From Armatimonadota bacterium (GTDB taxonomy: Bacteria > Armatimonadota > Hebobacteria > CAIYQO01), in assembly GCA_038248345.1 (NCBI GenBank), contig JBBRXO010000042.1, positions 1-22,766 on the forward strand: a DNA stretch of 22,766 nucleotides. Direction: 5' to 3'. Shown here piece after piece: positions 3,207 to 16,730 of this stretch (the first letter of the stretch is position 1; every line of letters starts with the position of its first letter). A model generated the notes under the pieces. It had not been told where the DNA came from and did no database searches. It was given only the letters and a program-made list of their open reading frames with translations. The position numbers were made by a program, and so were the translations under genes.

Positions 3207-4871
3207 TCAAATCGGGAATTCCGGGTGATCCGCCCCATTCTTCACCTTCTCAGCTTTTTTGAAGGTGACGTTGCCACGGGAAACGGGATAGTCTATCTGG
3301 GCACCGGCGAGTAATTCTTCGATGGTGATTATTTGCAGGCGCGGGTGAGACCTACCCCAGGGGGAATCGTAGAATCCGGCGCTGGCTGCTTCGGTTCGCA
3401 TCGGTTTAATGGGGTTCTCCATAGAGATCAGCACGCCGATTTCGGCCTTTTCACGATCAAGGACACCGCGCAAATCACGCAGGTGGGCGACGGTGGTATG
3501 GCCCGCCTTTACCGAAAGAACAACTTGTTTTGAGGCATCGTTGCCGATATTATCGTGGAAATATAGCACGCCATCGATACCTTTATCAGCGCCTTTTTTC
3601 TTCTCCACCGGGCGCGCCCCTACCAGCCCCAGCGCCCACCACTGGAATTGGTACGGGTCACTGGCCGCCAATGTTTGTGCGTCGGGGACGGATACCGGCT
3701 CGCCCAGTACTACAAAGGGTAAGTCCCTGCCGAAGGAATCCCAGAGCCGATGCTTCATCAGTGTGACGGCCAGGTGGGTGATTATCAATGCCAACCCACT
3801 GCCGCCCCAGCTTCTGTGCCGCTGCGATGGCCGTACCACAGCCGCAAAAAGGATCAAGCACAACATCGCCGGGGTTGGAGGAGGCGGAGATGATTCTGTC
3901 GAGCAATTCGCATGGCTTTTGGGTGGGATATCCGAGGCGTTCCTTTGCCTGGGCGCCAATGGGGTTGATGTCAGTGATAACATCTACAATGGAGATGCCG
4001 ATTTCTTCATTCAGATAGCGCTTGAATTGCGGGATTTCTCCACTGGGAGGCCAATAGATCAGCCCCATCTCATCGAGGATGTCCAGCTTTTTTGGAACTG
4101 ACCATCCAGACACCTTGTCGTCATATTCTCCTTGAGGACTTTATTCGGAACCGCCCAATGTCTTCCTGCTTTCGTTGGGTCAACACCGCGCCAGGCCTGC
4201 CCGGATTCACCGGTTCTAGTCCCTGCGCCTGTTAGATCACCCAGACGATATTGTCCCACATCATCATGAAAACGATAAAACTGTTTTTTGTAGTTTTCGG
4301 AATAGGGCTGATAGATGAGATTCCAGGTGTAATTATCGGTCTTTGAGTAATAGAGGATGATATCGTGTACTGGCCCCCACCTCTTTGAACCGGAATGGGC
4401 GCTGGTGCGTTTCCAGATAATCTCATTGCGAAAATTCACCGCGCCGAATACTGCATCCATCAACATCTTCAAATAATGGCTGGCCGTCGGGTCACAGTGT
4501 AGATAGATGCTGGCAGTTGGTTTCATCACGCGGCGTAGTTCAATCAGCCGGGGGGCCATCATCGCCAGGTAAGCGAGCATGGTGCTCTCGCCGAGGAAAG
4601 TGCGGAAGGACTGCAAGGCTCGCGACACCTGCCCGCCGTGCTCGACCGTCTTCTTGTACGCCAATGCGGCGGATTGATCCCATTGCCAGGTATCGTCAAA
4701 GGCTTTTATCTGCGACGCCGCTCGCGTGCCATCCGCTTCACCGAAAAGGATATTGTAGCTGGCGTTGCTGTTGAAAGGCGGATCGAGGTACACCAGATCG
4801 ACCGTTTCATCTTTCACATAATGGTCAAGTATCTCCAGATTATCGCCATAATATAGGGTATTGGTATCCAT
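3207..4871 (-). pseudogene. Beta-class N4/N6 DNA methyltransferase fused to a C-terminal Mrr-like restriction endonuclease domain, split by two 1-bp frameshifts
   Basis: ORF 4059-4871 has LYYGDNL and YLDPPFNS (motif IV). ORF 3658-4113 has GYPTQKP and VLDPFCGCGT (motif I) to WVGID. ORF 3207-3983 continues ITHLA..FQWWAL..GADKGIDG..VSVKAG-like LSVKAG. Frameshifts near 4126 and at 3783. Confidence 0.85.
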
Positions 4872-5505: not shown

Positions 5506-6663
5506 TTACTTTAAAACAACTGTCGCCACCGCATATGCGGACATACCTTCTTCGCCGCCCACAAAGCCTAATCCTTCTGCGGTGGTGGCCTTTACTGAGA
5601 TCTTTGTCGTGTTTATTGACAATGCGGTGGCGATATTTTCGCGCATTTTCGCAATATGTGGGGCAATTTTGGGTCGTTCCGCGGCCAGTGTCACATCTAC
5701 ATTGCTAATGGCATATCCTGCCGTGGCGATGATTTGTCCAACCTCTGCCAGCAGGTGCAGGCTATCCGCTCCGCGGTAGCGGTCGTCGGTATCGGGGAAG
5801 TGCTGGCCGATGTCGCCCAGCGCCGCCGCGCCCAGCAACGCATCCATCAGCGCGTGGACTAGTACATCTGCGTCGGAGTGTCCTAATAAGCCCAGATGAT
5901 GCGGGATGGTGACTCCGCCGAGGATTAATTTGCGTTTCTCTACCAATCGGTGGACATCATAGCCGAAGCCCATGCGTGGTGGCGCCGGGGTGAGCAGGCG
6001 CTCCGCCATGGCCAGATCTTCGGGGGTGGTAATCTTGAAGTTCATTGCTTCACCCTCTACCACGCGCACCGCATGGCCGGTTTTCTCCACCAGTGCAGCA
6101 TCGTCGGTGACGATCCATTTCTCTGCTCTTGCCTGCTGGTAGGCATCTATTATCAAACCCGTACGAAACCCCTGCGGTGTCTGCGCGCCCCACAACGTTT
6201 CGCGCGGGATAGTGGCGCGAATTATCTGATCGGTATCCACTTGTTTGACGGTATCCGCCAACCGATGTGACACCACGGCGGCGCCATAATGGCGAATCGT
6301 TTCAATACATCGTTCGATTACTGCCGGGGAGATGAAGGGACGGGCGGCATCGTGGATGAGCACCATTTCGGCGCCGGGGTCTACTTCCTGCAGGCCCAGC
6401 CAGACGGACTCCTGCCGTTCGGCGCCACCGAGGACGACTTTCTCACTGACGTGGGCCGGGCCGTCGGCCAGCAAGGCCAGCGCGCGTTCCATTTCGGCTG
6501 CGCCCACTACCAGGATGATCTCACTCACCCCCGGATGGTGGCGGAAAGTCTCCAATGCGTAGCTCAACAGCGGGCGGGCACCCAAGAGCGTCCAGGCTTT
6601 CGGTTCCGGAGCGCCCAATCGTGTACCCGAACCAGCAGCAGGTATGATCACCGAGATACTCGT
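5506..6663 (-). CDS. ispDF: Bifunctional IspD/IspF (MEP cytidylyltransferase + MEcPP synthase)
   Basis: [41 protein letters not shown], then [28 protein letters not shown]. The GGAGG SD points to ACG at 6663; the first canonical start is GTG 6651. Confidence 0.93.
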
Positions 6664-6706
6664 CGCACGCCTCCATTTTCTATACCAGGCAGAGATAATT
6701 ATTCTA

Positions 6707-7852
6707 CTAGTCTGTTTCGCCAGTGCCGTTATCGTTCGTTTTTACTTCCGCGAAGATCATCTTGCCCGCTACGGTTTGCAGCACGCTTGATACGGCTATC
6801 GGTATGGTCTCCCCGACTAGCTTTTTGGCATTTTCTACTACTACCATGGTACCGTCTTCCATATAGCCGACGCCCTGGTTGTACTCTTTCCCTTCGCGGA
6901 CGATGTTGACTGTCAGTTCCTCACCAGGGAGCATCATCGGTTTAACAGCGTTGGCCAGTTCATTCATATTCAAGACTTTTACGCCATGAATTTTGGCTAC
7001 TTTATTCAAATTGAAATCATTCGTGATGATATACGCTTCCAGCGACTTAGCCAGCTTCACCAGTTTCATATCAACGGGGTCACCCGGGACGAAGTTCGCT
7101 TTGTTGTAGCGATCCATGATACGAATAGAGATGGTATTTTCGTTCTGCATCTGGTGCAGGATATCCAGCCCGCGGCGTCCGCGATTGCGGCGCAATCCAT
7201 CAGCACTGTCGGCGATATGCTGTAATTCCTCGATGACGAAGCCCGGCAGGATGAGTTGCCCCTCGATGAAACCGGAGCGGCAGATGTCGATAATGCGCCC
7301 GTCGATGATGACGTTGGTATCCAGGATCTTGGGGACGCCGCGCACAACCTCCGGCGCATTGGTGATGCCCTCTGGCAGATGGGCGCGGAGCTCATCTTTG
7401 ATGCTGAAAGCCACAACATTGCCCAGCCACACCAGGAGTACGGTCTCCATCAGGATGATGGCGAAGATGGCGGGGGAGGCGACGACAGCATAGCCATTCG
7501 CATCCTTTAACAGGCTCATTAGCTGAATGACTTTCGCCAGTGCAAAAGCGACGGAGAGCGAGATGGTGGTACCCAGCAGGGCGGCGACTTTATCGGCAAA
7601 GGGGATGCGCCGCAGATTTTTCCCGACGGTGACGATCTGCCGGAAGAGATACGATCCGATGAGTAGCCCGATGAATATGCCTAAGGTGAGGAATAGCATG
7701 TAGGAAAAAATGATGAAATTCTTATCCACTTCCAACCCAGGACCCTTAAAAACATCTAACCGCAAATAGAGCGGAGTCAATGAAAACCCAATGAGACCAC
7801 CACCAAAAGCAAAGACTGAGCTGAACATTATTCCGAGAATACGTAGACCCAT
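6707..7852 (-). CDS. yacL: Membrane PIN/TRAM domain protein (YacL-like)
   Basis: Four hydrophobic segments, [66 protein letters not shown]. Conserved adjacency to ispD/ispF. AAGGAGGT SD. Confidence 0.93.
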
Positions 7853-15042: not shown

Positions 15043-15065
15043 AAAATACTCCGCCCGCGCACTTC
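15043..15065 (+). repeat. Left direct repeat bounding the TAC cassette
   Basis: AAAATACTCCGCCCGCGCACTTC, 21/23 identical to 16683-16705. Confidence 0.8.
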
Positions 15066-15149
15066 AGGAGTATCGTTTTTAGCGCCCGTCCTGTTCGCCC
15101 AGCCGTGAACGACTGGGCTAGTGGGCTGGCGTTAAAAACGACACTCCTG
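15065..15149. repeat. 85-bp nested palindrome (22-bp outer IR plus inner REP-like hairpin)
   Basis: CAGGAGTATCGTTTTTAGCGCC / GGCGTTAAAAACGACACTCCTG (20/22). Inner GCCCAGCCG-tgaa-CGACTGGGC at 15097-15118. Confidence 0.75.
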
Positions 15150-15225
15150 GCATGAACCTTGCACTTCAAGTTTGTAATATGATATTGTATGATTATATCA
15201 TTCAGATGACAAGGATTTGCGTGGA

Positions 15226-15894
15226 ATGATATATTGTGAGATCGGATACCACGGAACGAGAAGAGATTGTTTGGATGCTATTCTTAGAGAAGGATTCCGT
15301 CCATCTATAGGAGACAAACATTGGCTTGGGGATGGCGTCTATTTTTTCACTGAGCTTTTTTATGCTTATAAGTGGAGATATGACGCATGCAAAGCAAAGA
15401 CGCGAAGGCCTGATATACCATTTGTGGTGGATTGTTGCATTGTCCAAGCTCAAATCGTAACATCGAACGACCGAGTCTTTGATATGACAAAATTTGAGTA
15501 TTATGCTGAATTTCAGGAGTGGCGATTAGAAATTGAACAAATTATGCCCCGCACAGATCGGGCTAAAAACGCGGTACTAGACGGTGTGGTTTTGAACTAT
15601 ATGTTCAGTTATTTCGGGGTGAAGGAATATCGTGAGAAGTTTGATGTAGTAAAGGCGCAGTTTTTATTCGACTCTAACGGGATGCATCTAACTGATCTCA
15701 AATTGCCCAAGGGCATACCGCAAATGCAAATATGTGTAAAGAATTTAATTGCGTCTTCCGGGGAAAAGACGATTCAGGATGTAGTTGAATACTCAATTGA
15801 GAAAAAGATTAAATTCTTTGAAGCGCAACGTCATCAGTATGAGACATATAAGAAGCCAAATGGTGGCTATAATAATAGGAGATACCAGAGGTGA
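15226..15894 (+). CDS. Putative ADP-ribosyltransferase-fold toxin (CmdT-like) of a toxin-antitoxin-chaperone system
   Basis: GYHGT, WLGDGVYFF..A..W, DGVVLN, FDVVKAQF, QMQICVKN motifs. First gene of an operon ending in secB-like. AAGGA SD; alternative start TTG 15217. Confidence 0.7.
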   Translation: MIYCEIGYHGTRRDCLDAILREGFRPSIGDKHWLGDGVYFFTELFYAYKWRYDACKAKTRRPDIPFVVDCCIVQAQIVTSNDRVFDMTKFEYYAEFQEWRLEIEQIMPRTDRAKNAVLDGVVLNYMFSYFGVKEYREKFDVVKAQFLFDSNGMHLTDLKLPKGIPQMQICVKNLIASSGEKTIQDVVEYSIEKKIKFFEAQRHQYETYKKPNGGYNNRRYQR

Positions 15895-15954
15895 TCGACG
15901 CGCATATGGTATTCGTACTGATGGATAGGTAGTATCCTATTTAGGAGATTTAAA

Positions 15955-16227
15955 ATGGGAGCAACGGAAAGATTACAGTCAATGCGAGAGCATTTCGCAA
16001 ATATTACCATCGAAGAGTTCGAGCGTAATTTGCTACGGGCGGGCATAGAAATTATCCGGCCTGCATCTGACGATGGATATTACATGGTATGCCCTGAAGA
16101 AGAAGTTGCGGATTTCGTCGTCCCCAATATGAAAAGAGGCCAGGGCACAAAGATTAATGTCAAGTCTCTAGTTGGAGTTGACAATTATTCTTATGATAAT
16201 TCTTACACATTGGGGATAGCTGCATAA
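15955..16227 (+). CDS. Putative antitoxin with C-terminal chaperone-addiction-like tail
   Basis: 90 aa, TAGGAG SD, located between toxin and SecB, Tyr-rich tail NYSYDNSYTLGIAA ending in AA. Stop overlaps the next ATG (TAATG). Confidence 0.65.
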   Translation: MGATERLQSMREHFANITIEEFERNLLRAGIEIIRPASDDGYYMVCPEEEVADFVVPNMKRGQGTKINVKSLVGVDNYSYDNSYTLGIAA

Positions 16228-16646
16228 TGAATGAGCATAAAACGGAGACCGCAAGTAAACTACGTTTTCTCGACTATGTGGTTGACTATGTAGAATTCAA
16301 AAATAACGCTGCATTCGATGCTGAGGCGGTGGATATTGACTTTAATATCCACCATAAAGTTGTAAGAAACATGCCAGATGCCTATGTGACGTTGCGTATG
16401 AATATTTTCCCGGATGCAGCGGCTAATAACTATCCGTTTAGTTTTTCTATCAGCGCTACCGGGCATTTTCAGATTGATGGCGATGATTCAGAAGAGGCTA
16501 ATAATTTTCTAAACGTAAATGCAGTGGCGATTCTGTTCCCATATTTGCGAGCTCTAGTTACAACTTATACTGCAAATGCTAATGTTACACCATTGATTTT
16601 ACCCCCAGTTAATATCGCAAAAATGCTGGAGAAGAATTCGGAATAG
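16227..16646 (+). CDS. SecB-like chaperone
   Basis: YPFSFSISATGHF, NAVAILFPYLRALVTTYT..ANVTPLILPPVN, a typical SecB-family C-terminal signature. Confidence 0.88.
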   Translation: MNEHKTETASKLRFLDYVVDYVEFKNNAAFDAEAVDIDFNIHHKVVRNMPDAYVTLRMNIFPDAAANNYPFSFSISATGHFQIDGDDSEEANNFLNVNAVAILFPYLRALVTTYTANANVTPLILPPVNIAKMLEKNSE

Positions 16647-16680: not shown

Positions 16681-16730
16681 ACAAAATACTCCGCCCCCAC
16701 ACTTCCATGTGCGCGGGCGGAGTATTTTGT
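16681..16730. terminator. Bidirectional terminator between the convergent secB-like and DUF4139 genes; includes the right direct repeat
   Basis: ACAAAATACTCCGCCCCCACAC-ttccat-GTGCGCGGGCGGAGTATTTTGT, 22-bp stem with 2 mismatches and T-tracts on both strands. Confidence 0.8.

Follow-up and report, generated by a model that had tools for sequence, protein, structure and literature searches.

The three genes at positions 15226 to 16646 of the window (the whole 22,766-nt stretch of an Armatimonadota bacterium that was analyzed) were best explained as a divergent operon of the CmdTAC type, which, judging from sequence comparison, structural models and analogy with the E. coli system, probably aborts phage infection by ADP-ribosylating mRNA. 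In E. coli CmdTAC (PMC11618068), capture of the chaperone by a phage protein leads to degradation of the antitoxin, after which the toxin ADP-ribosylates mRNA, at the N6 of adenine in GA dinucleotides, so that translation stops. The rule used for calling these systems is a CmdT homologue followed by a second ORF and then a SecB-like gene (PMC9519451, PMC11618068), and the window presents this order of toxin, second ORF and SecB-like gene. The operon widens the known range of CmdTAC rather than revealing a new system. The preliminary description of this DNA had proposed a distant relative of CmdTAC, a proposal that stood on gene order, homology of the toxin to CmdT and the SecB-like third gene.

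Operon layout and genomic setting

The features of the region, in positions of the window, were the following:

15043..15065 and 16683-16705: left and right copies of a 23-bp direct repeat bracketing the cassette (91% identity), possibly an insertion scar
15065..15149: 85-bp palindromic repeat, a shortened MITE-like copy upstream of the toxin gene, outside the system
15172..15225, + strand: candidate toxin promoter (TTGTAA-18-TATCAT, 9/12 consensus matches) and weak ribosome-binding site
15226..15894, + strand: cmdT-like toxin gene (gene 1), 222 aa, predicted H-Y-Q ADP-ribosyltransferase
15955..16227, + strand: cmdA-like antitoxin gene (gene 2), 90 aa, with a strong AGGAG ribosome-binding site
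16227..16646, + strand: cmdC-like SecB chaperone gene (gene 3), 139 aa
16681..16730: hairpin with 22-bp arms, located between the cmdC-like gene and the convergent gene for DUF4139 and probably serving both as terminator; genomes lacking the cassette have it too

As had been described, the three genes are co-oriented and of low GC content, and run against the backbone: all are on the + strand, while the flanking genes (metallophosphoesterase on one side, DUF4139 on the other) are on the - strand. Their GC content was 40.1%, 42.9% and 39.5%, respectively, compared with 55.5% in both flanks and 54.0% in the genome, and when the genome was divided into 5533 windows of 1421 nt, 0.4% of them had values as low as that of the cassette. 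The reported overlap of the end of gene 2 with the start of gene 3 (TAA/ATG, read as TAATG) was confirmed at positions 16225-16229, and through it gene 3 is predicted to be translationally coupled to gene 2. For the toxin gene, the ATG at 15226 was taken as the probable start over an in-frame TTG at 15217, because the arrangement AAGGA-11nt-ATG is common to two relatives (loci L019 and L020); the ribosome-binding site of this gene is weak and far-spaced. Scanning the window for promoters and terminators gave results at chance level, with five promoter-like sites found vs. 5.3 expected, and the Rfam scan of the window returned no match. Contigs of one public run, which may be the source sample, span the whole stretch; the join between gene 3 and the DUF4139 gene is spanned by a single contig of that run, and the left join breaks in a multi-copy repeat.

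The cassette is read as a foreign, patchy insertion that persists at its site in part of the lineage, because it was absent at the same site in a same-genus genome (G001, where a different gene follows DUF4139), present at that site in a metagenome contig (L020, 75% DNA identity over 2.6 kb), and sparsely matched in relatives. The toxin protein used as a query found a match in 1 of 40 related genomes, and of 400 genomes of the same phylum, 28 were matched by the toxin profile, only one of them (G006) strongly; among the weaker same-phylum matches, those examined whose ORF was long and whose downstream sequence sufficed had no SecB. Phage genes were absent from the window, and the neighborhood is neither a prophage nor an obvious defence island. 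The 23-bp repeat occurs once more, weakly, elsewhere in the source genome (contig C130), and its interpretation as an att site is unproven, with no adjacent integrase and no left copy in L020. The MITE-like element represented upstream of the toxin gene measures approximately 198 bp, has terminal inverted repeats of about 20 bp and forms 44 clusters on 39 contigs of the source genome; full copies at C82:11860-12057 and C2:84582-84779 have 10-bp flanking direct repeats. Elsewhere in the window, a gene for a DNA methyltransferase whose C-terminal part resembles a restriction endonuclease was identified by eye at 3207-4871 (- strand), in three overlapping ORF pieces with apparent frameshifts, and positions 5506-7852 (- strand) hold what we take to be genes for a PIN/TRAM (YacL-like) protein, an ispD-ispF fusion and hpf, in this order.

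Toxin, antitoxin and chaperone

Gene 1 had been described as an ART toxin, and this was borne out both by profile comparison and by structure search: its product is, on sequence and model evidence, a CmdT homologue with an ADP-ribosyltransferase (ART) fold and predicted catalytic residues H9, Y39 and Q168. A profile built from 10 toxin sequences retrieved 1630 representatives (50% identity) at E<=0.001, chaperone-less relatives included, and 150 listed representatives together with the first matches yielded an alignment of 132 window-type proteins of 165-260 aa. This alignment was compared with a profile of 118 E. coli-type CmdT sequences, relatives of the E. coli cmdTAC locus L064 (PADLOC scores for PD-T4-9 A, B and C of E 4e-97, 3e-38 and 7e-61, respectively), resulting in an hhalign probability of 99.1% (E 1.3e-18, 163 columns). 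Against E. coli CmdT alone, the window-type profile gave a probability of 93.1%, and direct pairwise identity between the window toxin and E. coli CmdT was detectable over 52 residues only. The two PADLOC models for CmdT (PD-T4-9_A) matched the window toxin at E 4.5e-5 (residues 5-56) and 0.0024, and were matched by 81 and 71 of the 132 window-type toxins (E<=0.01), other PADLOC families being matched by at most 3 of them.

In Pfam, gene 1 matched PARP at E 0.002, under the cut-off, with no RES match at E<=1; NCBIfam had no match for toxin or antitoxin; and PHROG 14664, of unknown function, matched the toxin at E 1e-15, PHROGs giving an unknown-function family for the chaperone as well. The ESM Atlas placed the toxin with clusters without names at 0.96, mostly from Bacillota, one of which carried PARP on 18% of its members. 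Searching the sequences of solved structures returned three matches, all at chance level.

The predicted catalytic triad, of the H-Y-[E,D,Q] type, was kept in most window-type toxins (H9 in 127, Y39 in 129 and Q168 in 119 of the 132), and the matching H, Y and Q were invariant in 118/118 E. coli-type toxins. Y39 aligns with CmdT Y41, the mutation of which abolishes CmdT activity (PMC11618068), and W33, Y39, F40, W50 and C170 were common to both types. The motifs noted earlier were found at residues 8-11 (YHGT), 33-41 (WLGDGVYFF) and 166-171 (QMQICV), except that the first Q of the QxQxCV pattern did not hold across the family, being Q in 70 and E in 51 of the 132 proteins. The residues next to the active site differed between window and E. 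coli types, with YHGT vs. [YF]H[TN]C, WLGDGVYF vs. WLTQGYYF and [QE]xQ vs. RQQ (that is, G10-T11 vs. [TN]-C, D36 vs. Q, and Q/E166 vs. R), and therefore substrate choice may differ as well. The AlphaFold model of the toxin (pLDDT 90.2) had ART-fold structures as its top matches, namely MbcT (Z 9.0, rmsd 3.8, 147 residues aligned), NatT (8.5), VPA0770 (8.3), PARP1 (7.8) and the catalytic domain of diphtheria toxin (7.5), middling values that count as ties when within 1 of each other and that show fold, not function; a CmdT structure was absent among these matches. Foldseek with the same model listed the same kinds of protein, none at E<=0.001.

Gene 2 showed the anatomy expected of a CmdA antitoxin, which has been described as having two paired helices at the N-terminus, an extended C-terminal part without structure, and an LAA degron (PMC11618068). 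In its model, helices were predicted at residues 3-16 and 19-29 (pLDDT 91-96), and mean pLDDT fell to about 50 from residue 51. The modeled disordered tail is rich in aromatic residues (Y42, Y43, F54, Y78, Y80 and Y84) and is the predicted chaperone-addiction region, while the product ends in IAA, its terminal Ala-Ala being a candidate ClpXP degron by analogy with CmdA, where an AA-to-DD change removes toxicity (bioRxiv 10.1101/2024.02.24.581848). Among 30 antitoxin homologues collected from the same gene position, mean identity was 34% over the N-terminal 40 residues and 12% over the tail, and the C-terminal ends were AA in 18, VA in 6, IA in 2, AV in 2, AS in 1 and SS in 1.

Sequence similarity between gene 2 and CmdA was weak but in register. 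The profile of the antitoxin family aligned with that of 15 proteobacterial CmdA proteins with a probability of 57% (E 1e-4, 37 columns), E. coli CmdA alone reached 0.7% against the gene 2 family, and in shuffle tests the N-terminal CmdA profile placed 22/30 window-type antitoxins above 95% of shuffles, the reverse comparison placing 5/15. No named family was found for gene 2 in Pfam, NCBIfam, PHROGs or PADLOC, and its ESM Atlas clusters were without names and under 0.9; the PADLOC model PD-T4-9_B matched 0/30 window-type antitoxins. The variability of CmdA is such that it was left out of the CmdTAC calling rule (PMC9519451, PMC11618068). Altogether, gene 2 probably encodes a distant CmdA, and the suggestion that it might represent a new antitoxin family was not supported, given its CmdA-like anatomy, the weak similarity to CmdA and the known high variability of the latter.

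The SecB signature attributed to gene 3 was confirmed by Pfam PF02556 (46.1 bits, cut-off 26). Its score against housekeeping SecB (TIGR00809) was 39.7 bits, for a cut-off of 102.8, and its best match was PD-T4-9_C (E 1e-17); in PADLOC, the first and third genes matched their CmdTAC counterparts and gene 2 did not. Gene 3 was the sole SecB match in the source genome, in which housekeeping SecB was not found, in line with the non-proteobacterial host that had been proposed. By its sequence, gene 3 is assigned as a dedicated SecB-like CmdC.

Related loci, proposed mechanism and alternatives

For co-occurrence, loci with 36 distinct full-length toxins were taken from genomes, from metagenomes and from viral contigs, and in 33 of them 750 nt or more of sequence was available beyond the toxin. 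The toxin was followed by SecB and an antitoxin-like ORF at 31 of these 33 loci, a count that is partly circular for the antitoxin and not for SecB, and the expected co-occurrence of homologues as a triad was thus upheld. The two loci without the full triad were L013, with a more distant toxin, and L045, a decayed Halanaerobium-type copy. Named hosts of related loci comprised 12 Bacillota and one Methanothermococcus MAG, and copies of the system were present on 6 viral contigs and a Streptococcus satellite phage.

Quick toxin trees resolved two SecB-bearing branches, the window type and the E. coli type, and a third, chaperone-less one (support 95, 100 and 93, respectively), after 15 of 85 toxins (near-duplicates, short or broken) had been dropped, the support values and the trees with the Streptococcus gordonii toxin being drawn from 36-row subsets. 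A single origin of both chaperone-bearing branches was neither shown nor excluded, because the tree is unrooted and long-stemmed. The toxin of the S. gordonii satellite phage scored 75 bits against the window-type profile vs. 44 bits against the E. coli-type profile, and formed a very long, unplaced branch in the quick tree. In the Streptococcus satellite phage Javan248 (L134:1992-3267, MK448383.1), an unannotated ART toxin is followed by an antitoxin ending in FAA and by SecB.

Several variants of the arrangement were observed. A triad is present in the Methanothermococcus MAG (L003:4001-5408), and the contigs L023, L024 and L057, of approximately 30% GC, carry chaperones that resemble that of L003 and may also be archaeal; the antitoxins of L003, L023, L024 and L057 have the ends SS, IA, CS and VA rather than AA. 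On the viral contig L057 (1864-2895), toxin and antitoxin form a natural 343-aa fused ORF with an in-frame internal antitoxin start, followed by SecB; this ORF may reflect either genuine fusion or loss of a stop codon. In gut and viral contigs (L025-L028, L032 and L053-L056), the final ~100 nt of the toxin ORF are shared, in a different frame, with the antitoxin ORF. Decaying Halanaerobium-type copies (L008, L042-L045 and L049) have a split toxin, and a deletion joins the antitoxin start to the last residues of the chaperone. A very divergent toxin-antitoxin-SecB triad, whose toxin was missed by PD-T4-9_A, was found on a Thiodictyon plasmid (L016:1992-3334, NZ_CP020371.1). The chaperone-less sister group of toxins (L079-L106 from genomes of the host phylum, L017 and L018) includes members with a downstream partner of 70-130 aa and a similar helical hairpin, ending in AA in L080, L081, L083, L087 and L090, and others with a small gene upstream (L017, L018, L091, L095-L097 and L099); they are candidates for toxin-antitoxin systems of two genes with an ART toxin.

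If the operon works like E. coli CmdTAC, in which toxin, antitoxin and chaperone form a 1:1:4 complex, the helical hairpin of the antitoxin would bind the toxin and aid its folding, and a SecB tetramer would wrap the aromatic tail and hide the Ala-Ala end, an arrangement of toxin binding and tail shielding that very probably applies here. A newly made phage structural protein would then outcompete the tail for the chaperone, and a ClpP-type protease would remove the antitoxin, the latter step being a probable one. The freed toxin, with NAD+, would modify single-stranded RNA, stopping translation and phage production. RNA is a fairly likely target of the window toxin, while the same GA/N6-adenine specificity as in CmdT is slightly doubtful. 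The trigger is probably other than T4-type Gp23, because the phages of this host differ. Trigger and target may both be new, as the preliminary description had suggested.

It is unlikely that the same three-part control is coupled to another target or reaction, be it another RNA motif or base, DNA, protein, or destruction of NAD+ as in the RES-type MbcT and NatT. These two proteins and VPA0770, all three RES-type toxins that consume NAD, were the top structural neighbors of the toxin, the triad is flanked by residues that are systematically unlike those of the E. coli branch, and long stems set the window toxin branch apart, all of which would fit such a difference. However, those Z values are ties with the PARPs and no CmdT structure was among the matches, sequence profiles link the family with CmdT (E 1e-18), in Pfam the match to PARP was weak and RES was not matched at E<=1, the shared W33, Y39, F40, W50 and C170 are consistent with conservation of the substrate cleft, and both CmdT proteins tested in the cited reports, from E. 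coli, modify mRNA. That the module could serve selfish addiction or the stress response, in the manner of the M. tuberculosis TAC system, rather than phage defence in its host, would agree with the ordinary metallophosphoesterase and DUF4139 neighbors and with the lack of phage genes in the window; moreover, unfolded proteins of the host can titrate chaperones of the SecB type. Relatives of the system are nevertheless carried by viral contigs and a phage satellite, their spread is patchy, and E. coli CmdTAC, HigBAC and MqsRAC, where tested, all protect against phage, which makes this explanation very improbable.

Whether the operon could fire at all depends on a host protease reading the Ala-Ala end. 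ClpP is encoded in the source genome, whereas no clpX match over the cut-off was found in its assembly or in the 77%-complete genome G001, as would be the case if the genes were intact but silent passengers unable to fire in this host. Yet clpP ends 260 nt from its contig end, inside a multi-copy repeat (L063:1-260, C130), precisely where three relatives carry clpX directly after clpP, and clpX was over the cut-off in 7/11 same-family genomes. In addition, the tmRNA tag of the source genome ends in ALAA, and AA ends are rarer than expected among its long ORFs (1 of 1444 vs. 15.8 expected, P 2e-6). Because of the contig break at clpP, the clpX genes of relatives, the ALAA tag and the avoidance of AA ends, the host likely has an AA-reading protease; with the catalytic residues all intact besides, a silent passenger is extremely unlikely. 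The repeat after clpP is a tandem, multi-copy element of ~125 bp, and no extension was obtained from contigs aligned onto the clpP contig end.

A divergent CmdTAC operon that probably acts on mRNA is the preferred reading. A second and mechanistically distinct CmdTAC lineage, with another RNA motif or base and a chaperone that senses phages of Bacillota, Armatimonadota-like hosts and methanococci, is rather unlikely. If this were true, the AA-less archaeal copies, the fusion and the chaperone-less sister group would form a natural series showing how addiction to the chaperone and the sensing of phage were gained or lost, and would open a first way to study ADP-ribosylation of mRNA in the immunity of archaea.

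Comparison with known systems

Among ADP-ribosyltransferases, CmdT was the first to be described as modifying mRNA, and Gram-positive homologues of CmdTAC are already in print; no names of taxa with homologues were found in the supplements of PMC11618068. No paper on the window branch or on archaeal CmdTAC was found in the largely open-access literature searched. The operon overturns nothing known. It marks a large, distant toxin branch, in which standard defence profiles detect the toxin weakly and miss the antitoxin altogether, and it bears on the generality of mRNA and GA specificity in the CmdT family and on the reach of chaperone-based phage sensing beyond Proteobacteria, possibly into archaea. 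A RefSeq-wide SecB/TAC survey by Nakamoto, Atkinson and colleagues (about 2025) is said to include a second ART-toxin TAC class, and reportedly covers translation-blocking ART toxins from E. coli, B. subtilis and Streptococcus gordonii; if the window branch corresponded to that class, it would be less new still.

Toxin-antitoxin systems of the RES type (MbcTA 6FKG, NatRT 8QNL and ParST 6D0H) share the ART-like fold and gave the best structural scores. The RES motif has Arg in the first strand, whereas His occupies this strand in 127/132 window-type toxins. A RES-Xre system was ruled out, with no RES or Xre match in Pfam at E<=1, no Xre-type antitoxin, and SecB as the third gene. DarTG, a phage-defence system, also has an ART toxin, DarT, whose substrate is nucleic acid, but it was discarded as well: no DarT or DarG match was found in Pfam or PADLOC, the structural Z was 4.4-4.8, and gene 2 encodes a 90-aa hairpin and tail instead of the macrodomain or NADAR hydrolase antitoxin of DarTG.

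Among SecB-bearing systems, CmdTAC of E. coli O112ab:H26 resembles the window operon in the aromatic residues of the antitoxin tail and the Ala-Ala end, and in CmdTAC and HigBAC these elements are needed for ClpXP-dependent activation, the chaperone being the phage sensor (bioRxiv 10.1101/2024.02.24.581848). The O112ab:H26 CmdA has about 121 aa (AA at 120-121) vs. 90 aa for gene 2, and the two are likened by description only. Compared with CmdTAC of E. coli ECOR22 (PD-T4-9), the window toxin belongs to a separate branch, is 30 aa longer and has other residues beside the active site; direct comparison finds a 52-residue N-terminal part only, and the PADLOC antitoxin model misses gene 2. The window operon is chromosomal, while that of ECOR22 lies in a P2-like prophage hotspot, and the host of the window operon lacks housekeeping SecB, unlike the E. 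coli host. In the remaining respects, the window operon is closest to the ECOR22 system as described in PMC11618068 and PMC9519451, from which it shares the toxin-antitoxin-SecB order, an H-Y-Q ART toxin in which Y39 corresponds to Y41, an antitoxin of variable sequence with two helices, an unstructured tail and an AA end, a SecB-like third gene, and the character of a mobile, low-GC insertion.
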